A DNA stretch of 62,152 nt, filler included, from Ionaspis alba (taxonomy: Eukaryota): the NCBI GenBank assembly GCA_964255285.1. It is 6 parts of 6 records of this genome, joined end to end, with 100 filler letters (N's around TTAATTAATTAA, not from the genome) between each part and the next. Parts side by side here need not be neighbours in the genome. Positions count along the whole stretch, not along the records: positions 1 to 10,373 come from CAXUUL010000610.1; 5 more parts are not named here. The stretch is one strand, 5' to 3'. Below the pieces are notes generated by a model. It was not told the DNA's origin. It saw only the letters and a list, made by a program, of their open reading frames with translations, and did no database searches. The position numbers and the translations under genes are program-made. This document shows, piece after piece, positions 1 through 14,052 of the stretch (the stretch's first letter is position 1; each line of letters opens with the position of its first letter).

Positions 1-522
1 CTCCCCCACCTCCCGCCCCACAGAGATCTACTCCATGCCTCCGAGCAGCATCCTCCACCGAGGCCAGACCTTCTTCGACAAGATCTATGGCAAAGTGGCG
101 AAGCGGGTGATGGGCCAGATGGATCGGTGCGGGACGGAGGATTTGGGACTGGCGGCCAGGTTGATGTATGGGTATTTGTTGAGCAATGAGGGGGTTTTGC
201 AGGCGGTGGAGACGAGTTGGGTGCTTTTGGCGGGGTTGGTGCCGCAGGATGTGAGTTTTGTTTGTTTTCTGGGTTTGGAAAGGGGAGGGGAGGGGAGAGG
301 ACAAGGGAAGAAAGGGCAATTTGCTAATGCGGGTGCTTCTGATAGGTGAATCCGCAACTCAAAGGCCATCTCAAGGGAGCATTAAATAATGGGGCTACGG
401 TTGAAGAGGTCAAGGCTGTGAGAGAGGTTGTGATTAAGATATGTGAGGCTTCGGGCATGACTAGACTGGAGGAGTCGGTACCGGGAGGTTGGGGATGGAG
501 AGGGGAGGTTGCGAATCTTTAG
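1..522 (+). CDS. 3' part of an AhpD/carboxymuconolactone decarboxylase-like protein (Pxp2-like, probably peroxisomal); 5'-truncated; intron 251-345
   Basis: Spliced translation ...LLAGLVPQD|VNPQLKGHLKGALNNGATVEEVKAVREVVIKICE...WGWRGEVANL* contains the AhpD-type QLxGHxxGALxxGAT motif. Intron is GTGAGT...GCTAAT...TAG. C-terminal -ANL is a PTS1-like tripeptide. Confidence 0.75.
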
Positions 523-3500
523 GTAGATGGATGTTTGGTGGTGAGATGGACGGACAAGGTTTGGGTTAGTGTACATATTGGTTTGGTGGTAGTGGATGGA
601 GTGGGTTGGGATGAATGTCGTTGTACCTTGTAGATATTTTGGGGTTGGTGGTGATAGTGGGGTTTGGTTTAAATGTACTGGTAATGGTACTTAAAGCGGG
701 GAGAAGATTGATGATTCTCTAAACGGTTGCGCCAGTGGTGAGAAGTTGGACGAGATAGTTAGTGGTCATTTTGCTCACTTGGAAGTGTGCGAGGGCCGAG
801 AGGTGGCTTGTGCTTGTGAAGAGGAGGCTGGAATAGACGGGAGCTTGTTGCCAAGATTTAGGGCTAGTTTGATAAACGAGGTCGATCGAGATCGGTCGAG
901 ATTGATTGTGTTTGGCGAGATGGCTGATTTGAGATTTGGGAGAAGGACCGGAGATAAGAGGATCTTGTGATCATTTGAGAAGCGTACATGGATGTCTTCT
1001 GGTCCTTGTTCTCATTCTTCGTTAGAGCGGTGATGATGAATAATAGTGATCATCATCGAGATCTGTCTTGAAAGGGCCATGTCAATAACGCCAACGCGAA
1101 CGACTGATGTGGGAGGTGGGAAGCAAGCATGTTTGTTTTGCTCTCGTCGTCAATAAATATTGAATAATGATATACCAAGTCTGTGTATCTTTTTCTCGTG
1201 TTCTCTTCTTCTTACGGCCGAAGCACTAAGTTTCCGAAGAACCCGGATGCTTGTGCAAATCAATCAATTCTCTTGAACCTAAGCTACCAGATATGATGGG
1301 CATGAGATCAAATCTGGATCGAGAACACATCTCGCCGTCCTGGTCCCATTCCCGGTGCAGAAGTGGTTCAGTTCGTCAATCCTAGCCAACTCTTCCTTCC
1401 CTTCCCCTTGGAACGCTTAGCACCCGCGCACAACACTGGGAAGTTACTTGGCGCTTTACCGGCAACGGGTAGAATATCCAAAGACAGAGATGGTGGGGTT
1501 TTGGTTGGTTGCTGGACTTTTGAAAGCTTTGACCAAAAACAGGGAGAGCCGCGGGGTTCTTCCGAAAAGAGTCTCTCAAAGCGCCAGTGGCTTGTTCTTG
1601 TGCACTGGAGCAGCAAAGCCGGAGGGCACGTCCGCCGCGCATAGTGTTTTCCATTGGCGAGGGAAGGGATGTCGGTGAACTTGATAGAGAGAGGCAGAGC
1701 GGGGAAGGCGGGTGGACAGGCAAAGGAAAAAACACAACTCTGGGCTTGTCCCGATGGATCGGTGAAGGTTGGGTGGGCAGGAATGAGGCGCCGTTCTGGA
1801 AAGTGTCATGGAACTCCCGGGTGTCTGGCTCGCGGGGCTTTTTTGGTGGAGGGTGAATGAAGAGGAGGAGCCCATGCTACTACCGTTGCTTACGCCCTGT
1901 CTCTTGGGTTAAAGGATTCTTTGGCTTCTGCTGACCTACCTTTGGTGTGAGTGAGGAAGGATGGGTCTGTCTGACTGCTGCCTTCTCGTGGCCTGGTGGC
2001 CACTCAGGCTACACCACGTTCTGCCAGCCTACTCACCGATAAGGAAGAAGGCAGCAGCCACCATTCCCGGAAAGTAGCTGAGGAAACTTGGCGGACGGGG
2101 AGATCTGCAGATTCTCGATGCGATAGTCAGAGACACGGAAGAGTGGTGAAGTCTGGGAAACTGGCGAACCAAACGTTCTTGCTTGCGCATGGTCTTTTCT
2201 TCATCGAGTTTTGTGTCAGGTCTGCTAGCCTTGGGTGTAGGTTTTGGTAGCGACTTCGACCATGAATATTGAGATAAGATGCAGCGGAGGAGACGAGCTT
2301 GAGAATAAGTTCCTCTCAGAAGTTCGTAAACTACCGAGCCAGATCTACTCCAGAAATGGGTGATAGAGGCGAGTGTCGGAGTTCTATGCTCTGGTTCTTC
2401 ACTATTTCCTTGTGCGCCCAGCCATCTCCACATTACTAACCCCTCATTCGAGAGGTTCTTGTGACCACAATTGCCAAGTTGCTTGGATATTTCTTGGTTC
2501 GTGGCTCACGAACCATTGACTCACTAGTCAACTCGACTGAAGAAAGAAATAACAATCGTCAAGAAAAGTGAATCTCACTAAACCAGAAGTTACCCCCCCA
2601 CTGGAACCATCGCATCGCATCGGGAATCGGGGATGCAACAAAAGTCTCTCGACGGCGTTCTCGTAGTCGCCGAAGCAAGAAGGCTTAGAGCCGTTAGCGC
2701 AACCACTCTATTTCCCTTTCCCGCCTAAAGGGTCTCGCCGAAAAGCGAAAAGAAGGCGGCCAGACAGACAGACAGACAAGACACACAAGAGCCTCGCGAC
2801 CATGTCCGACCGACGTATGGCAGGACTGGGATTACAGACAGAACAGTCCCACAGGGAAAGTGTGACAGACAGGCCACATAACCAAGCCTCTCATCTCCCA
2901 CTACTCGAGCCCTATGACTCCAGCATGCGTTATGGCTCGTGCTTTTTCACCGACTCTTGCCTCCCTTCTGCCATTGCACCCATAGGGCTGCCAGCAGGAA
3001 TGAACGGTCTGAACGGTGCATGCATCTACTGCATCTTGACAGTCATCCACACCTGCATCGCCGCACATCTTCCCCGTACACCATCCATTAATCAATCCGA
3101 ACTCGAGAGAGTTCGCCTATTCGGTGGAACCAATGACGCATCGTCCGCATCACATCGCATCGCGAGAAAGAATAATGCATCACATTGGCGCCTTGTGGTG
3201 GCCTTCGGGTTCGCCTTTTTTTCCCTCTCTACGCTGGTGGCCCTACGACTTTCTCCCCCTTGCCTTGTCAATTTAGGCTCATTATCATCATCATCAGACC
3301 GTTCGGGTCTTCCTATGATGCCTGTTGCCTGCGGAGGCGGTCCGCGGTGACAGATGACAGGATGTTGATTGCGCATGAAGGTTGCAACGACTGCTTCCTG
3401 TCTTGGTTTGCAACATGTTATTATTTTTTTCATATTTTCTGACTGTCCGGAATGTGCCTTTGCTTCTTGCGCTGTGAATGGACAGACAACAATAACATTC

Positions 3501-6387
3501 CATATTAGCGCAACGGCCGTAGCGTACGGTACGGTAAATACCAGCCCGGTTGTGGTTGTATTTCCTTTGGTGAGACGTTAAGAGTTGAGGAGATGAGGTA
3601 CATGAGGGTACATGGGACGATTCGGCGAATCAATCCGATCAATGGCAGATCATGAAGATGCCGTTGAAACAGGAGTCGACCGACTGTGCCATATATTCGC
3701 TTCGTCTGGGCCGGCAGAGATGCCACAGATCCTTCAGCCCTTCCAGCCCTTTCAAGCCCTACACAAGTACTCGAGCCATGAATGTAAAGAAAAACCAAAA
3801 AAAAAACCAGAGATGCAACGGGTATCCCCTGCGTGAAATTACGGCTCTCACTCGCACGTGAAGGATCGTCCCACATCCCGCACACTTGCTGCCCACACAC
3901 CCGACAGTGTGGACGAAAATCTGACAGGGACAAATGAAACGAAGGGATGGAAGGATTCCTAGGGGAGCAACACGCCCTATGCCTTGAATCTCGTGGCCGT
4001 CCCCATGTCTTTCTACGTCCATTGGCTACGAGGATTTCAATTCCGTAGTATCATCATTTCCCTGCCTCCCTTGAGATTGGTCAGTGTTGACTTCGTTCGT
4101 GTCGTCGATGACCACCTTCATGCACGTCCGTGCAAAAATTGGTTGCTCTTTTTGCAGGTACCTTTGGACACGGGGATACATTCTATCCGACCCAGACCAA
4201 TCAACTGCCCGACTGTTGAAAAGGTAAAGGGACTCTGCCAGGCCTTGCCGAGAGTTGACGTGGTGGTCAAGTACGGCGTGGCATGGTAGGGTCAAGGCAT
4301 GTTCACTTGTGCATTGATTCGACAGATATACAACAAGGCTAGACCACCGCGATGTCACCAACATCAGATTCATCTCATCGATGGTGAGGAAGGGGGAGCG
4401 AAAGGAGGTCATCGATAGATGGACCCCTTTCTTTATGCATCACTTTTCACGAGATGGCAAGGATCGTTCGACAGAATGACTGTATCAAAGTATGTAGTGT
4501 GTAGTGCGGTGAAGAATGGCATGCAGAGCAGAACAATGTCAGCAGCAGTGTCCTCGAGATCCACGGGGAACAGGATGACTGCATCTTGGAGGCTTGTGAT
4601 ACCGAAGAATAGAAGCATCGCAATTACTCATCCATCTGACAGACAACAGTGACAACACACCGACGAACGAACGAAGCGATCGAGGCAAGTAACAGAGTTG
4701 ACCGAACCGCTGGTACGATCATTGGACTACTAAAGTGATACTGTACTGTACATACCGCAAGCACCAACTAAACTTCAAATCCTTAAGCAGCGGTGTGGGT
4801 ATATTTGGTTTCGTCGGATTTGGGCACAAATCATCGTTTGGCGAGGTGCGGCGCAAGCATGCACTGCACTGCACTGCACACATCAAAGCAAAATGGGGAG
4901 CCCTGTCCACGAATAGAATTCATCCCGACACAGCCTCCAAATCTCATCGTGTTGCCCTACCGAGCCAACCAAAGCAGCCGCTGCTCCTTGAACCCTGCGC
5001 CATGAGCCGGAGCGAGATGGGGAGGATCTCTCGGGTTTGATTGGATGAGTGGCTGTCGGGGTCCCACTGGAGTGAACGTGCATGATGGCTTTCCTCTGCC
5101 CTGGTAACGGTCTAACCCGAATGGCAGTGACGGAAAAGGATAAGCGGCGATACGGGAGGCCAGGGGGGTGTGTGTGTGTTGAGTAGCGCAAGGCAGTCTT
5201 GGATTTTTGGGTTCTACTACTTGTCCCTACCCCTTCCCCCCTGGTCCCTACCCACACGCACTCCCACACCCACACCCTCCGACGACAAGCCTCGCTCTCT
5301 CCCCACTCCCACTCTCACCGCTCGAATGCCGGCTCCTTCGGCGGTGGAGCGAGCCTGCATTCTTGTGCATTCTTGTGCATTTCTCCCTACCTTCGGTCTC
5401 TCCAACCCCTGGACACGATCGTCTGCTCACCAAACACTCACCGATCAAGTCTCCCTTGATGAACGAACAGAATAGAGTCATCAGGCACAACCTCCACCAG
5501 TTTCATGCGACAAAGAGCGGAGTGAAAATGGCGGAGAAGAAGCTCGAACTCGAACAACTCGGCTAGCCTTGTCACTGCTCCTCCTGCTCCTCCTCCACCA
5601 CCACCACTTACCGGACGTACCGTCCATCCTTGCTCGCTAACTCCCTGACAGGACTAAGAGAAGTGTAAGTGAGTGAGAGAGAGATCATTGAGAGTAGTGA
5701 GAGACAAAACCAGTCACACATACATAGACCAAAGCTAAGCCCAACCCGCGCGATCGGCCAGGCCGGCGGAGGCATTTTCACCATCCCAGCCATTCTTGCC
5801 CTTCTTTCCCCCAAAAGTCGACATTGGCAGCGAACACCAAAGCGACCACAGTGTGTGTGCCTGCCCATAGGGCGACCGCCAGGATGCATCTACCGGGATG
5901 CGTGGGGAGACATGGGGCAGATGAACAGGGGCCCCCGTCCAAATCTTGTGCCCTCGAAACCCATTCAACCCCCCCCCGGCATTCCCTAAATGACTGTCTC
6001 GTTCTTGGGAGTGCTGGGCTGCTGGCTGCTGCTTGCTGCGCATGTGCTTTTCGACTATTACTACTTCGACCACAACCCACTACTACTATTACTATACTAT
6101 CCTATCCACTACCTATCACTACTACTACCACTACTCTCCCACTTCATTATAACCAGCATCATCCTCCCCCTCCTCATAGCTTTAAAGTCCGCCCCCAACC
6201 CACGCTGATCTCTGCCTTGTCTGTCTCACATCCACACCTCCTGTCCATCACTACCTCAAACGTCTTTTCCAATACCTTGATACCCGAGTGCCGGACAGCC
6301 CTCTGATCCTGCTACTACCCGCTTGAAACGTTTATCAATCTTGCTTCGGCCTCCTCGTCTCTACCTGCATCCCCGTCTCTGCTATTG

Positions 6388-6429
6388 ATGTCCTGTCGGT
6401 GTTGTACTTCCATCAGCGCTTTGCTATAA
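6388..6429 (+). promoter_or_regulatory. Upstream ORF (MSCRCCTSISALL*) in the putative leader of the C2H2 gene
   Basis: ATG at 6388, TAA at 6427-6429. It is the only ATG in exonic leader sequence between ~6050 and 6640. The transcription start is unknown. Confidence 0.45.
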
Positions 6430-6493
6430 AGTACTACGCGTCCCCTCCCCGTCCGGTCTGTTGACGGTTGCACTACTGCTCATATCACTTGAG

Positions 6494-6576
6494 GTATGTA
6501 TGCTCCCAGCCTTGTGTCGCAATCCCTATCCCCTCGAGCCTGTCTGTCTGAATGTCGCTGACCCGGCTGCTCACAG
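6494..6576 (+). other. 5'UTR intron of the C2H2 gene
   Basis: GAG|GTATGT donor at 6494, GCTGAC branch at 6557-6562, TCACAG acceptor ending at 6576, 63 nt before the ATG. Confidence 0.75.
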
Positions 6577-6639
6577 CTTCAGTCACCCGTTAGCCAACCC
6601 TATCCGTTCTACTGGCATCAGTCGTCCAGTGAAAAGGGC

Positions 6640-8970
6640 ATGGCTTTGGTCCAAAACAGCTTGAGTGATTTCGTGCTCTTCCCCCGAGACCAAACCTTCT
6701 TCGAGATGAACCAAGACGACAGCAACGCGCAGTTCCAATACTGCCTGAATCCAGACCTACAACAGGAGTTCGACATGAGCCAATCCACCTTCGACTCCTT
6801 CCAGGGTCTCAGTGCCTTCGCACCCACCGAACAAGCCTACTTTGAGACTCCGCAACTTGTGGTGAATGGTCCGAGGGATACTCTCAAACAACCACACCAG
6901 AGATACACACCTTTGGCATCTCCATCGCTCTCCGCATCGCACTCTCTCGATCATGCTCCTTCCAACTTGTCGCACAATTCCGGTACTTCGGGCCAGAGCA
7001 CAGCCTCATCGGCCGTAGGGTCACCGTACTCTCACACCACCCACAGCCTACCAGGTCAAGAGCCATGGATGAATCCGCCTCACGGCCTGGGCATCGCTCC
7101 AGGAATCGTTCACAACGAGTATGGGACCGAGTCGTTCACTTTCCAAGGTGAGGGCGACCAGCTCAACTACGACAACGTCAAGTTCCCCGATAGCTTCGTT
7201 GGTGAGTTCAACCAGGTTTCTTCGTCGTCAAACCTCGCCAACAGCCCTGTTATGTCTTCTCCTATTTCCTATTCTTCTTCTTCTTCAATGTCTCAGTCTC
7301 TTGTTTCTGCTGTTCCGTCTCCCAATCTGGCATTGGATACCGCGATGAAAGCCCGATCGGTCACTATCGATACCATCTTGGAGGAGATGGCTGGAAACAA
7401 TCACAATTCCGGCCATATGGCTTCTCCTGTTCCTGTTGCTTCGCCATCGGCACCTGCGACAATGCGGACTGCATCGGTTCGGCGCTCGAGATCACCGGAA
7501 CAAGCTGGCCTTGCATGCATTTCACCTACGACACCTGCTTCTGCGATGGCCCAATTGCCCGGTCGCAACAGCCATACATTCATATACCGTCCAGAGTCCC
7601 GGAAACGATCCATCGGAAGCGCCGAAGGCTCCTCCGTACACCAAGGAAGTCCACCTGTTTCGAAGCGACCGGCACCAACTCCCATCTCTCCCAACGAGGC
7701 GTACAGGACTCAATTTCAATCTCCTTTCTTTAGTCAAAGCAGTGGTCGATTTGTCGCTCCATTGCAATCATCTTGTTGGTTTCCTTATGCGTCCTTTCCT
7801 TTACACTTTATGAGGCATTCTGCTGAGAATACTCTACTTCTCTCTCCTATCTCATCTTTCATATTTTACTTGCTGTCAATAGATGCTAACAGCGATCAAT
7901 CAGATCCTTCCTTGATCCAGCCATACGATATGCCCGCTCCTCCACACGCGACTCCTTCTCCCTACCAAACAACACCACAGCAATTCCATCCAGCTCCTCA
8001 CATGTTCCAGCCACCCTCTCCAGCACTATCAGACGCGTCCAGCCAGGACTCATATCGCACTGGATCCAGACAATTCCGAAGCGGGAACCAGTCTCCTTAT
8101 CTCCACAACATGACCTACCAACCCTACCCACCACCAGCCCAAGGGCGCAGACCTTCAGTCAGCTCCTTGCATTCTCGCTACTCGTCTCACGGTAGCCCTC
8201 GCTCGGCAAGCCTTGGCTATGATGAGGAAGGCAAAGAGAGATGCCGTTGCCCCAATCCCGACTGCGGTCGCTACTTCAAGGATCTCAAGGCTCATATGTT
8301 GACACACCAATCGGAACGTCCCGAAAAATGTCCGATCGTCACTTGCGAGTACCATCAAAAGGGGTTCGCTCGCAAATACGACAAGAATAGGCACACCTTG
8401 ACCCATTACAAGGGTACAATGGTCTGTGGTTTTTGTCCTGGTGGAGGCTCTCCTGCTGAGAAGAGCTTCAACCGTGCGGACGTATTCAAGCGACATTTGA
8501 CATCGGTGCATGGTGTCGAGCAAACAGCCCCCAATAGCCGCAAGAAGAGCCCCGGTCTATCATCCTCCAAGAAGTCAACCACCTCCTCTCAAGAAGCCGC
8601 CGGCAAGTGCTCCACTTGTTCCGCCATGTTCAACAACGCGCAAGACCTCTACAATCATCTCGACGACTGCATCTACGCCCAGCTCGAAAACGAAGAACCA
8701 AGCGAAGCAATCAACGAACGCCGCCTCGCCGAAGTCGCCAACGACAAAGCCGTTCACGAGACCCTAGATCGGAACATGGTTTCTTCCTCTCTACCCTCCA
8801 GCACCGAGAGCGGCGCTGGTCTGGAGGAAGAAGACGAGGAAGAAGACGACGACGACGTCGACGAAGACGCCAACGACTCCACCTGGACAGGGCCAGGCGG
8901 CATTGGCTCTCGATCCGGCAAGGGCGGCATCAAATCCACCAAGCGTAACAACAACAACAATTCGAGTTGA
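6640..8970 (+). CDS. C2H2 zinc-finger transcription factor, form ending at the first stop; intron with acceptor 7903 and donor 7202 or 7775
   Basis: Fingers CPNPDC...HMLTH, CPIVTC...HTLTH and CGFC...HLTSVH, plus CSTC...HLDDC. S/P/Q-rich N-terminus and acidic tail. GCTAAC branch at 7885-7890 and CAG at 7901-7903. Confidence 0.9.
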   Translation: MALVQNSLSDFVLFPRDQTFFEMNQDDSNAQFQYCLNPDLQQEFDMSQSTFDSFQGLSAFAPTEQAYFETPQLVVNGPRDTLKQPHQRYTPLASPSLSASHSLDHAPSNLSHNSGTSGQSTASSAVGSPYSHTTHSLPGQEPWMNPPHGLGIAPGIVHNEYGTESFTFQGEGDQLNYDNVKFPDSFVGEFNQVSSSSNLANSPVMSSPISYSSSSSMSQSLVSAVPSPNLALDTAMKARSVTIDTILEEMAGNNHNSGHMASPVPVASPSAPATMRTASVRRSRSPEQAGLACISPTTPASAMAQLPGRNSHTFIYRPESRKRSIGSAEGSSVHQGSPPVSKRPAPTPISPNEAYRTQFQSPFFSQSSGRFVAPLQSSCWFPYASFPLHFMRHSAENTLLLSPISSFIFYLLSIDANSDQSDPSLIQPYDMPAPPHATPSPYQTTPQQFHPAPHMFQPPSPALSDASSQDSYRTGSRQFRSGNQSPYLHNMTYQPYPPPAQGRRPSVSSLHSRYSSHGSPRSASLGYDEEGKERCRCPNPDCGRYFKDLKAHMLTHQSERPEKCPIVTCEYHQKGFARKYDKNRHTLTHYKGTMVCGFCPGGGSPAEKSFNRADVFKRHLTSVHGVEQTAPNSRKKSPGLSSSKKSTTSSQEAAGKCSTCSAMFNNAQDLYNHLDDCIYAQLENEEPSEAINERRLAEVANDKAVHETLDRNMVSSSLPSSTESGAGLEEEDEEEDDDDVDEDANDSTWTGPGGIGSRSGKGGIKSTKRNNNNNSS

Positions 8971-9429
8971 CAATCAACACATCCCCGAGGTGTCGTCTCG
9001 TCGCACGTCGGGGGTGGCAACTCCAGCATCACCAAACCCCCTCGCCACTCCTCCTCCTCCTCCAATCCCCCAAGCACCAGCACCACCACCCGGCGCGTGG
9101 GGCTCACCTACTCCAAAGGCGGCGTCCCGCACGTAGCCAAGGGCCGCAAAAAACGCAAACATTACCCCGTCTCCTGGGGCTGTTCGGCCGACAACATGAA
9201 GATGAAGAAGCGCGTCATGTGTGTTTATGACGGGCAGCGCAGGCTGTGGAAGGATGAGATGATGCTGGATAATGAGTTTGAGGTGCGCATGCGCTTGGGT
9301 GAGGGGGGGGCCTATGTCACCGATTTGGATGTTGCGTGTTTGGAGAAGGCGGAGGCGTTGTTGGGTGCGACGGAGGAGGAGAAGGGACCTTGGGTGAGGG
9401 AGGATGAGGGGGGGAGGGAGATGGTTTGA
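8971..9429 (+). CDS. In-frame C-terminal extension of the C2H2 protein beyond TGA 8968-8970 (candidate stop-codon readthrough product, 152 codons)
   Basis: Same frame as 6640 with no stop until 9427-9429. Encodes GLTYSKGGVPHVAKGRKKRKHYPVSWG...KKRVMCVYDGQRRLWKDEMMLDNEFEVRMRL...YVTDLDV...ATEEEKGPW. T-rich 3'UTR-like sequence starts only after 9429. Confidence 0.7.
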   Translation, partial: QSTHPRGVVSSHVGGGNSSITKPPRHSSSSSNPPSTSTTTRRVGLTYSKGGVPHVAKGRKKRKHYPVSWGCSADNMKMKKRVMCVYDGQRRLWKDEMMLDNEFEVRMRLGEGGAYVTDLDVACLEKAEALLGATEEEKGPWVREDEGGREMV

Positions 9430-10373
9430 TGATGAGGTGATGGGTTTTGGGATTGAAATATCAACAAAAAAATGGGAGTGATGTGGGGGTGTACTACTAT
9501 TTGCTGTTTATTTGGTTTTTTTTTCTGGTTCTTGTTCAGCGATGTTTGTGGAGCGATTCAATTTTTTTTTCTTTTCTTTCGTCTTTGGACTACCTTTTAC
9601 AAAGCGGGTTTTGGATCTTGATGCCAGCTTCTTTGGATTTATGATCTTATGGCTTTCATGAAGGATATGCAATTGGAGGGAAATCTATTGTCTAATGAAA
9701 GAGAGAGAGGGTGTGTGAGAGAGAGAAGGGTTCGACATCAGCAAGCACCAGCGTCTGTCTTGTTGTTCTGCGCATTTGTTGTTGAGCTCAGATCGTGTAC
9801 TTTGTTACCATGGTCCGCGCCAGGGTTACTTGTTTAGTTTTAGTTTTTAGTTGTCAGGTGCCGGTCATCTAGTTCTGTCTATCTACTACTAGCTAGTTTA
9901 GAGAGGGAAAAGCGAAAGGTTGAAGAAAAAAAAACTACCTAATGTCTCTTATTACCAACCATCATAACTCTTGATGTTGAAGTCCACTGTGCGATTGCAT
10001 CACATCGCAGAGAACCCTAAAGCAATAGAAAAAATAGAAACAAACTTCCATCACCTCGGTCAGTCACACACTCGCATGCACACCAACAACAACGTCACCA
10101 TCCTAAATTTGTCACAATCCACTTGCATGCTCGTATGACCATCATCACCACGTTGTAAGATTCGTGGATGGGAGTAAGCTCGGTATCTTCCGCCAGGAAA
10201 CAAAAAGCTTGGCACTACTTTCGAGTTATTTTAAGAACTCGATCTAGTCATAAGGCTGGTCGCTCGCCGTGCACAGCCGCACGCCGTAGCCGCCGGCACT
10301 CCCGAAATAATGCGTCAAGGAAGTGGACAGGGGTACGCGTTGAGATAGCCGAGGGTACGCGTCGCGGTGTTCC

Positions 10374-11791: not shown

Positions 11792-14052
11792 TTACTCATC
11801 CTCACTATCACTACCATCTCCAAAGATAGCTCGAAACACAGCTTCACCCGGCCTCTCCTTCTCCAGAGCCTCATTCCTCTCAGGATCAACAACCACCCTC
11901 TCCACCTCCTCAACCTTTACCCCCTCTCCGCCAAGCATTCCTCTCTCCAACTTCAAAGCCTCCATCTCCCTCTCTCCCACAAGTTCCAACTTTCCCTTCC
12001 TCTCCCCCTCCCTACTCTCCGCAGTCTGGAACCCACCATATTGGAACCTGCTCCCAAATCCTCCTACATCCACGCCCGTCCCTGCACTCCTCGCCGCAGC
12101 ACCACCACTCTGCGCCCCAGCCTCTCCCTCCGGCATAACGTGCTCCGGCACCCTGACATTAAACCTCTTACAAAGCAACCTACTCGGATAAAAAACCTTC
12201 ACCTCCCTCGTCAACTGCCCAAACATGCCCAACCTAGCCGCCTCCTCCGCCGGATCGCTCTTCTTCACCGGTCTAGACAACAGCTCCTCATTCTCGACTT
12301 TCACAGCCGGCGCACCCCCCGAATTCGAAGACGTGAACCGCGATGCCATCATTCCGGACATGGGCTTGAAGATCGTGGCCGAGTGTGCGAATTCCCGCAT
12401 TTCGTTCGCCCAGTCCTCGTCGCTGGTGCCCGGAGCGCGATCGGGGAGGCCGGGGCGTATGTTCGCGGAGATGGAGAGGAAGGTTAGGTAGCGGGCGCGT
12501 TTGGTAGCGTCGGTTGCGTAGGGGGTCCAGCCTGTGGAGGCCCGTGCAAGGGCTGTGGAGGCGAGGCGAGGGGAGAGGGGTGGGATGAGGGAGGAGGAAG
12601 AGGAGGTGGTGGATGGGCTTGGAGCTGGGACATAGGTGCTGGGAGGGGGTTCGGCGCCTGCGGCAGGGAGGTTTGGATTTTGGGTGGCGGTTGCGAGGCG
12701 GGCTCGGGCTGAGGGCGTGAGGTAGTCAAAAACTGACTTTGAAGGAAGGGGTGTCTCGCCGAGGAGGTTGGCGCGGGTCGTGGGATTATGGGCTGTTGCC
12801 TGGGATTGGGAGGAGGAGTTGGGAGTGTTTGAGGGTTTGGAAGATTGCGTAGATGGAGTTCTACTGGATTTCCAGTCTGCTGGGATGATCGGAGGTGGAT
12901 ACTTGGTTTCATGGTCAGGTTTGAGAGGCGTTGAGAGGATGAAGCCCGGGAGCGGCAGGCGGCCGTCGTGGCAGCGCCGGAAGCCAGTCGAGGAGGTTTT
13001 GCTCGCTTTCTTAGAAATGAAGATAGGTTTGCTGCGGAGGAGAGGGTTCGAGGATGAAGTGAGTTGCGTTTTGCTCGTTTCGAGATTGGGCTTTTTCTTC
13101 TTCTTCTTGTCCCCGCCGATGATGCGATTGTAGGAAATCTGAGGGCCCATGTGGTACGGGTCTTCGTCGTCCGAGCCGTTGTCATTGAGGATGCCAACAC
13201 CAAAACCTCCACGGCGTGCTTGAGGCCTTGGCTTCTGTTTTGCGGATTTGGAGGTGAAAGCGTCCTCTTGGTCGGATGAGGCCTGCTTAGCCTCCTTTTC
13301 AGTACCATTCGTAGAATTATCGGTTAATCGACCTTCCCCTTCGAATCCCAATCCTTTATGGTCGTTCTTGCGGACGAACGAAATCATCTTTGAGTTTTCG
13401 GGAGCAAATAGATGCGTTTCCTGGCCATCTGTGTTCCCCTTTCCGTCCTCATCATTTAGCCGCGCTTTTCTCCGTACTTTTGGGCCAACACCCTGTCCAT
13501 CCTTCCAGCCCATTTTCCGAAGCAGCTTAACCCCCATAGTATCTCCAGTGACCCTCAATATGTCCATAAAAGCTCCTTGCCGTAAAACTTCCTCCTCAGT
13601 CGACCCGATACCTGCAAAGGAATCTGACGTTGCCAATTTCTTCGATTCCTCGGCATCAGCAATATCCTCCTGGTCCATAAAGTCTTCCGGTCTCTGTTGA
13701 ACTGATTGAATATCCTTCTTTCGGTTCGATTTTGACGATACGAAGGCAGAAGGAGTCCATCCCTCCTTAGATCCAACGGTATTGAAATAACTATAGGTTC
13801 TGATCAGCGACTCGCAAATTGAAGAGAACCAAAGGATCATACTGACCCTGCACTAAAGCCGCCTGTGAAAGCTCCATGAAGTCTCTTTCGGCCCCTCTCG
13901 TCTGTGACTTCTTGTTTCCAGACCGGTACATATGATCCATCATCCCGGACCTCTGAATCAAGCGGTGGAAGCGGAGTTCCATATATCACGTACGGTGATT
14001 GCTGTGCTTGGAGGTCTGCTTCGAATGTTGCACGCGATCGTTTGTAAGCCAT
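11792..14052 (-). CDS. G-patch domain protein, GPATCH1/DUF1604 family; intron 13791-13846
   Basis: N-terminal [38 protein letters not shown]-patch [19 protein letters not shown]-terminal [13 protein letters not shown] and FRAIFGD. Confidence 0.9.

Follow-up and report, generated by a model that had tools for sequence, protein, structure and literature searches.

A ZfpA/AN1500-family gene with an internal UGA

The sequence analyzed (hereafter, the window) is a 62,152-nucleotide stretch, filler included, of the Ionaspis alba assembly GCA_964255285.1, in which six parts from six records are joined end to end, with positions 1–10,373 coming from CAXUUL010000610.1. The window is of fungal origin, and its plus strand carries a gene homologous to A. 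nidulans AN1500. Exon 1 of this C2H2 transcription factor gene spans 6640–7201 (+), as defined by the open reading frame, its translation, and a match to a splice junction of AN1500, with the start codon inferred. It is followed by a 702-nt intron (7202–7903, +; GTGAGT donor, CAG acceptor) that is stop-free and in frame in this genome, is removed in cDNA-like loci (L071, L027, and L035), and is missing from the AN1500 protein. The zinc-finger region (8248–8670, +) encodes three C2H2-like fingers and one C2HC-like finger, with a weak match to Pfam zf-C2H2. The frame is open for 802 codons up to a TGA at 8968–8970 and then continues in the same phase for 152 codons.

When translated through the stop (X at the stop position), the protein has its best database relatives among C2H2 proteins of lichen-forming fungi and other Pezizomycotina, and AN1500 is listed among the matches of a search with a Eurotiales-like locus. 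The window protein and AN1500 share 45% identity over 520 columns (E 2e-129), with the alignment covering the fingers and the region past the stop, and fingers 1–3 are near-identical. We assign the gene, as judged by sequence, to the ZfpA/AN1500 family, with a finger array and a C-terminal domain homologous to AN1500. Identity with NsdC was ruled out by finger spacing: NsdC has two C-X2-C-X12-H-X3-H fingers (PMC13599534), a pattern that does not fit fingers 1 and 2 of the window (C-X4-C-X9-H-X3-H and C-X4-C-X15-H-X3-H). AN1500 is named as the orthologue of A. fumigatus ZfpA (PMC11069582), which is described as a regulator of branching, septation, and chitin (PMC10174577). The Aspergillus orthologue is also reported to control antifungal tolerance (PMC10174577, PMC11069582), azoles to shift ZfpA from the cytoplasm to the nucleus (PMC10434176), and a Monascus homologue has been described (PMC13744339). 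The available text of these four papers makes no mention of ZfpA readthrough.

Several other features were recorded along the window. The intron at 7202–7903 is stop-free and in frame in several homologues as well (e.g., L002, L030, and L042), and a peptide-like motif recurs near 7720–7780 inside it, which suggests an alternative 5' splice site or a retained-exon isoform of the same gene. The zinc-finger region has an extra 56-nt intron in the L070/L071 clade and a frame change in L014. Just before the stop, a short AAC repeat (8945–8962) encodes a poly-Asn run that is present in this genome only; the homologues end in Ser-Ser, Ser-Cys, or similar at this place. Past position 10,373 the window joins more than one contig, and the next piece carries an unrelated gene for a G-patch/DUF1604 protein (11792–13852, −).

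Conservation of the stop and its CARYYA context

A scan with the extension sequence returned 80 related loci, and in 42 of them a single in-frame stop separates the fingers from the C-terminal domain, at the site equivalent to the UGA at 8968–8970 (+), the putative leaky stop of the window. Another 33 loci are open and lack the element, and five are uninformative. Rows L067 (an out-of-frame false call) and L026, L049, L076, and L077 (contigs without a zinc finger) were dropped, whereas L074 was added on manual inspection.

All 42 stop-bearing loci, which include near-duplicates and comprise 26 distinct sequences, read TGACARYYA, and the stop is always TGA. The 9-nt spacer of the window, CAATCAACA (8971–8979, +), consists of CAA UCA (CARYYA) and three further nucleotides. 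Codon 1 after the stop is CAA in 26 of 26 distinct sequences, and codon 2 is TCA, CCA, TTA, or CTA; because the encoded amino acid varies (Ser, Pro, Leu) yet the form YYA is constant, the constraint acts on the nucleotides. Upstream in the same genes, none of 2517 codon positions (which are not independent) has an in-frame CARYYA. Among the matches listed in a separate, protein-level search with the pre-stop part, 90 of 120 shorter homologous proteins end at the equivalent place, with P0313 and P0333 counted as full-length proteins. Four other TGACARYYA matches in the window have no long flanking ORFs and were taken as chance. A genome-wide pattern made of the stop, CARYYA, and a stem start gave four matches compared to two for the control, although this pattern is tight and looser signals could escape it; three of the four lie outside this gene, where they also lack long flanking ORFs and were taken as chance.

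A hairpin downstream of the stop

The original prediction described a stem-loop after the 9-nt spacer, with 12 of 13 arm positions paired (one U-G pair, one G.G mismatch) around an 11-nt loop. Counting by hand gave exactly this structure, in which the 5' arm (8980–8992, +) pairs with the 3' arm (9004–9016, +) and encloses the loop (8993–9003, +). RNAfold, the check that had been proposed, returned the same helix as both the MFE and the centroid structure, with two further pairs within the 11-nt loop. Folding 8971–9030 gives −25.5 kcal/mol and a z of −4.17, with none of 200 shuffles folding as well, whereas the opposite strand only reaches z −1.92. For the isolated 37-mer the values are −23.6 and z −5.23, and for the longer interval 8960–9080 z is −2.62, with one of 200 shuffles folding as well. 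A longer helix between 8964–8969 and 9018–9023, part of the MFE structure for 8960–9080, was rejected, as the predicted partner of the stop varies between species. No second helix was seen, by methods that are blind to pseudoknots, and the loop varies among homologues in sequence and in length, the latter by steps of 3 nt. An Rfam search gave three chance-level matches (best E 0.18), all far under the gathering score. The sole DNA run containing this stretch has an identical TGA and hairpin at a depth of about 80, with one distant mismatch; this run may be the window's own source and is therefore not independent. The stronger evidence for the hairpin is its conservation and covariation in homologues.

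Covariation and constraint in homologous loci

The prediction had named the lack of conserved pairing in orthologues as a finding that would speak against it. The opposite was found: pairing is conserved, with compensatory changes, in loci of both the lichen-fungal and the Dothideomycete-like group. Most of the 26 distinct sequences have a predicted stem that begins at or beside +10, in some cases extended by additional outer pairs; the fold is less clean in L008, L031, and L064. Downstream of the stop, the first 60 nt have a mean z of −3.14, with z < −2 in 22 of 26 distinct sequences, compared to controls before the stop (mean z 0.12; 1 of 25 < −2), further downstream (mean z −0.48; 2 of 26 < −2), and in the linkers of 24 distinct open orthologues (mean z 0.12; 6 of 192 windows < −2). 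The open orthologues show no comparable structure.

In a MAFFT alignment of the 26 sequences, 12 pairs hold in 89.7% of cells, compared to 41–54% for slid-partner controls. Two-sided changes occur in 31 cells and affect 6 of the 12 pairs; the covariation score was reached by 0 of 500 shuffles, whereas the number of affected pairs (six) lacks significance when taken by itself, as 54 of 500 shuffles reach it. One sequence (L070), misplaced by three columns in alignment A1, was retained, so these counts are on the low side. RNAalifold, unaided, predicted 11 of the same pairs. Because relatedness inflates covariation counts, pair states were mapped on the protein tree of 23 representatives. This revealed eight double-compensatory events (pairs 1, 4, 8, and 9), eight one-sided changes that keep the pair, and 12 pair-breaking changes, five of them at the ninth pair. 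Co-change on the same branch was 5.5 compared to 1.7 for permuted partners (P 0.008), with the 3' arm anchored by best pairing, a choice that favours structure. With unconstrained anchoring, 23 of 24 representatives have 9-nt arms separated by 16, 19, 22, 25, or 28 nt; these steps of 3 nt imply that loop indels keep the frame.

Synonymous-site constraint, another check set out in advance, was evident from codon sharing, which is raised in the spacer and in both arms. Among comparisons with the same amino acid, the fraction with the same codon is 0.85 in the spacer, 0.67 in the 5' arm, and 0.78 in the 3' arm, compared to 0.42–0.57 in seven flanking regions, and the peptide encoded over the arms is only 46–52% identical. 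These results bear on the reading that the hairpin is a chance structure or a by-product of protein conservation, or that the locus is a broken gene or an assembly error. The arms encode His-Pro-Arg and Gly-Gly-Gly, and such C-rich and G-rich runs could pair on their own account; however, pairing is about 90% kept over a far more variable peptide, the compensatory changes alter amino acids, and the stop and stem recur together in two fungal classes and are missing from open orthologues. Covariation, fold controls, and tree mapping largely refute the chance reading, whose probability we regard as close to negligible, and the structure is almost certainly under selection.

The extension and its presence in the mature mRNA

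The putative readthrough extension (8971–9429, +) comprises 152 codons and ends at the TGA at 9427–9429, and its length is 129–170 codons in 25 of 26 distinct stop-bearing sequences. It contains a conserved C-terminal domain (9100–9393, +) that includes a basic cluster, KGRKKRK (9139–9159), which one might guess from its composition to be a nuclear signal. Among stop-bearing loci this domain shows 62–80% pairwise amino-acid identity while synonymous codons vary freely, and it is under purifying selection. The domain is continuous with the fingers in AN1500. It is probably the region behind the precomputed PF28332 label, which is missing from proteins that end at the stop. The extension of the window had no match in a local Pfam copy, no match to PDB sequences, and no usable match in the ESM Atlas. 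An AlphaFold model of the extension (pLDDT 65.8) has three strands plus helices; Foldseek returned no match for it at E 0.001 and the best VIA Z was 3.6, which is uninformative on the fold either way.

The C-terminal domain might instead be made by reinitiation, or the UGA might specify selenocysteine or be a sense codon in a variant genetic code. An in-frame ATG is present downstream, at 9196, and a hairpin near a UGA recalls the geometry of the bacterial SECIS. Nevertheless, in the window and in many homologues, the conserved segments GLTYSKGG and RKKRKHYPxSWG precede the first Met, in 21 of 25 cases these genes have TGA as their regular terminal stop as well, and the frame is preserved across the stop, with AN1500 forming one continuous protein. 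Neither tRNA-Sec nor SepSecS was found in the genome's own assembly, which is incomplete. We consider this group of explanations extremely unlikely.

Evidence on the mature mRNA comes from L071, a spliced, cDNA-like contig from which the three introns of the genomic locus L070 are gone; both are identical over 1102 nt, including the TGA and the hairpin. Given that introns were removed and the TGA and hairpin kept, the stop stays in the mRNA, as read from one consensus contig of one species in which a minor edited or spliced form would be hidden. Such a minor form could arise from an alternative intron that removes the stop, with TGAC or CTAAC as the branch point and the hairpin controlling the choice of acceptor. 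The TGAC, and in some loci CTAAC, do resemble the fungal branch-site consensus, the NCBI models for lichens and Pleosporales leave the stop out, and a donor-like match at −26, CTAAC at +6, and CAG at +39 occur together in 5 of 26 sequences, all from one clade. The intron of this clade-specific candidate would be 65 nt and shift the frame, however, and no splice sites are shared: a consensus donor is missing from the 150 nt upstream in 15 of 26 sequences, and a YAG from the 120 nt downstream in 5 of 26. The database models remove a different stretch in each species, the frame is intact with a single stop in all 42 loci, and L071 is unspliced here although its three real introns are removed. An alternative intron is accordingly judged highly improbable.

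Stage-specific A-to-I mRNA editing, which would convert UGA to UGG (Trp) with the hairpin as a guide, is likewise very unlikely. Stop-loss editing that uses hairpins exists in fungi (PMC13123824), and one protein, P0064, seemingly has Trp at the stop position (at the protein level only). The known system, as described for Sordariomycetes, is UAG-biased and has the edited A in a hairpin loop (PMC13123824), whereas the stop in the present set is UGA in 42 of 42 loci and lies 9 nt outside the conserved stem, with no pairing partner that is consistent across species. Moreover, the cDNA-like L071 reads TGA, and editing would leave CARYYA unexplained.

Distribution and history

In a quick tree built from an unfinished search (54 locus rows and 41 reference proteins), stop-bearing loci group with lichen fungi (Pleopsidium, Alectoria, and Psora) and Dothideomycetes (Pleosporales and Teratosphaeriaceae). 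Open loci group with Eurotiomycetes and Leotiomycetes, except for two (L054 and L068) that fall among the Dothideomycete stop-bearers. At least five changes of stop state are needed on this tree, which points to a single old origin followed by several losses or, alternatively, to repeated gain.

Four proteins (P0009, P0050, P0064, and P0306) apparently have Gly or Trp in place of the stop, at the protein level only. In these and in P0310 and P0326, the stop has seemingly been lost through a sense codon or a short deletion, with remnants of the hairpin-encoded peptide kept. These apparent stop-to-sense losses are leads only, and they may be artefacts of gene models or of the genetic code applied. 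Many NCBI models (e.g., P0004–P0021, P0036, P0043–P0045, P0053, P0066, and P0077) each delete a different stretch around the stop, which is consistent with false introns predicted to avoid the TGA. If so, the annotations of many lichen and Dothideomycete genomes would carry a wrong model of this gene, which is either cut short or mended with introns that disagree between species.

Proposed readthrough and proposed role of the hairpin

The observed element consists of UGA, CAR YYA, three nucleotides, and a stem whose basal part (8–9 bp) contains a 1x1 mismatch and whose upper part is short. Both its pairing and its position are conserved among Dothideomycete-like and lichen-forming, Lecanoromycete-like fungi. 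We hold that the stop is very probably bypassed by translational readthrough and, given readthrough, there is good reason to expect that the hairpin raises its level. The latter rests on the position of the hairpin and on viral precedent. The combined reading, in which CARYYA and the hairpin would together drive programmed UGA readthrough and yield ZfpA with or without its C-terminal domain, is likely. The original prediction had tied the hairpin to recoding as a cis element, and this gains strong support from the conserved and compensated pairing, the +10 position, and the absence of structure in stop-less orthologues.

According to this proposal, the hexanucleotide would weaken termination when the UGA is in the A site, the stem, located at the mRNA entry channel, would resist unwinding or hinder release-factor accommodation, and a near-cognate tRNA would decode the UGA in a fraction of ribosomes. 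Assuming a start at 6640 and removal of the 702-nt intron, the short ZfpA would have about 542 aa and carry the zinc fingers only, and the long ZfpA would have about 695 aa and include the basic cluster and the C-terminal domain. In Eurotiomycete and Leotiomycete relatives the long form would be constitutive.

The main alternative, which we find unlikely but give more weight than any other, is that UGA-CARYYA by itself is responsible for readthrough and that the hairpin is kept for protein binding, protection from nonsense-mediated decay, ribosome pausing, or readthrough damping. The original prediction had taken the hairpin for a second, independent element; such independence is putative, as within the locus set the stem is found only together with TGA-CARYYA. 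The reverse does not hold: 3 of 24 representatives (L008, L055, and L064) keep an intact TGA-CARYYA with a stem that is weak or outcompeted (arm pairing probability 0.21, 0.20, and 0.02), so the stem may be dispensable. In addition, the basal sequence is more invariant than pairing needs, with the U-G pair present in 15 of 26 sequences and two C-G pairs unchanged on the tree, and CARYYA was sufficient in TMV and in reporters (PMC3542737, PMC4132726). Against such a separate role, the 5' arm is locked at +10 in two fungal classes despite varying loop length, and +10 is the spacing of known stimulators (PMC3542737, PMC13517186).

If readthrough stimulated by the hairpin is accepted, a whole conserved domain of a hyphal-growth regulator would be gated by it. 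A broader and tentative possibility, less probable than not by a clear degree, is that the element is an ancient bipartite switch that sets the ratio of fingers-only to full ZfpA, is older than the split between lichen fungi and Dothideomycetes, is tuned through the hairpin by growth or stress, has been lost repeatedly as the long form became fixed, and is hidden in annotations by false introns. Such a switch would be a virus-like, structure-stimulated readthrough signal in a nuclear gene of filamentous fungi. The approximately 26 natural stem variants and the element-free lineages form a test series for 3' structures acting on termination, a mechanism that a 2012 review called unknown (PMC3542737).

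Comparison with known readthrough systems

The closest model is a hybrid signal that combines type I (CARYYA) with type II (UGA plus 3' stem-loop). The viral architecture proposed in the original prediction is retained in part: the likeness to structure-assisted viral signals stands, in this hybrid form, whereas the gammaretroviral pseudoknot is a more distant match to a UGA-C followed by an apparently simple hairpin. Because the element has UGA and not UAG, CAA and not CGG or CUA, and no UAG-G, it departs from each of types I, II, and III in one defining feature. A paper on eRF1 and readthrough in plants reportedly also contains CARYYA.

Type I signals are defined by stop-CARYYA with a stop that is usually UAG, CARYYA also stimulates UGA, and readthrough is commonly stimulated by a 3' structure that starts about 8 nt after the stop (PMC3542737). 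In a mammalian reporter, CARYYA on its own yielded about 15% readthrough, and the same study reports no conserved structure among the genes it confirmed (PMC4132726). The nearest known entry is the extension of the Benyvirus coat protein, where CARYYA occurs with a compact stem-loop (unpublished data in Table 5 of PMC3542737). The element shares with the tobamovirus-type and Benyvirus signals of type I an exact CARYYA after the stop, here with all four YYA codons in use, and a compact stem-loop that follows. It differs in having UGA in 42 of 42 loci instead of UAG, in its location in a cellular nuclear gene, and in a covarying stem fixed at +10. With type II signals (alphavirus, tobravirus, and coltivirus) it has in common the UGA, a spacer of 8–9 nt, a stable 3' stem-loop, and synonymous-site constraint, whereas the next codon is CAA as opposed to CGG or CUA and the stem is compact (about 37 nt) as opposed to extended. 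With the gammaretroviral type III the element shares the length of the spacer and a structure placed close to the mRNA entry channel; that system uses UAG-G, a purine-rich spacer, and a pseudoknot, compared to UGA-C, a CAAYYA spacer, and an apparently simple hairpin here.

In the papers covered here, fungal programmed readthrough involves short contexts with small targeting tails (PMC4207609) or A-to-I editing (PMC13123824). Peroxisomal readthrough at UGA-CUA (PMC4207609) also concerns fungal cellular genes, a UGA, and C-terminally extended isoforms; there, however, a short context leads to tails with targeting signals, whereas here CARYYA and a structure precede an extension of 130–170 aa that is a constitutive domain in other fungal classes. 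In fungal A-to-I stop-loss editing the codon is preferentially UAG and the edited A is in a hairpin loop, unlike the UGA outside the conserved stem. The Aspergillus ZfpA/AN1500 shares the zinc-finger array, the C-terminal domain, and the splice junction, but AN1500 and other Eurotiales proteins among the matches listed are continuous, without an internal stop or the element. The available text of a Zymoseptoria annotation preprint uses 'readthrough' for transcripts only. In the literature searched, largely open-access, we found no report of the element; genome-wide readthrough tables in supplements could list the gene. What the element brings together is a CARYYA hexanucleotide like that of TMV and a hairpin that covaries, both at the UGA of a chromosomal gene.
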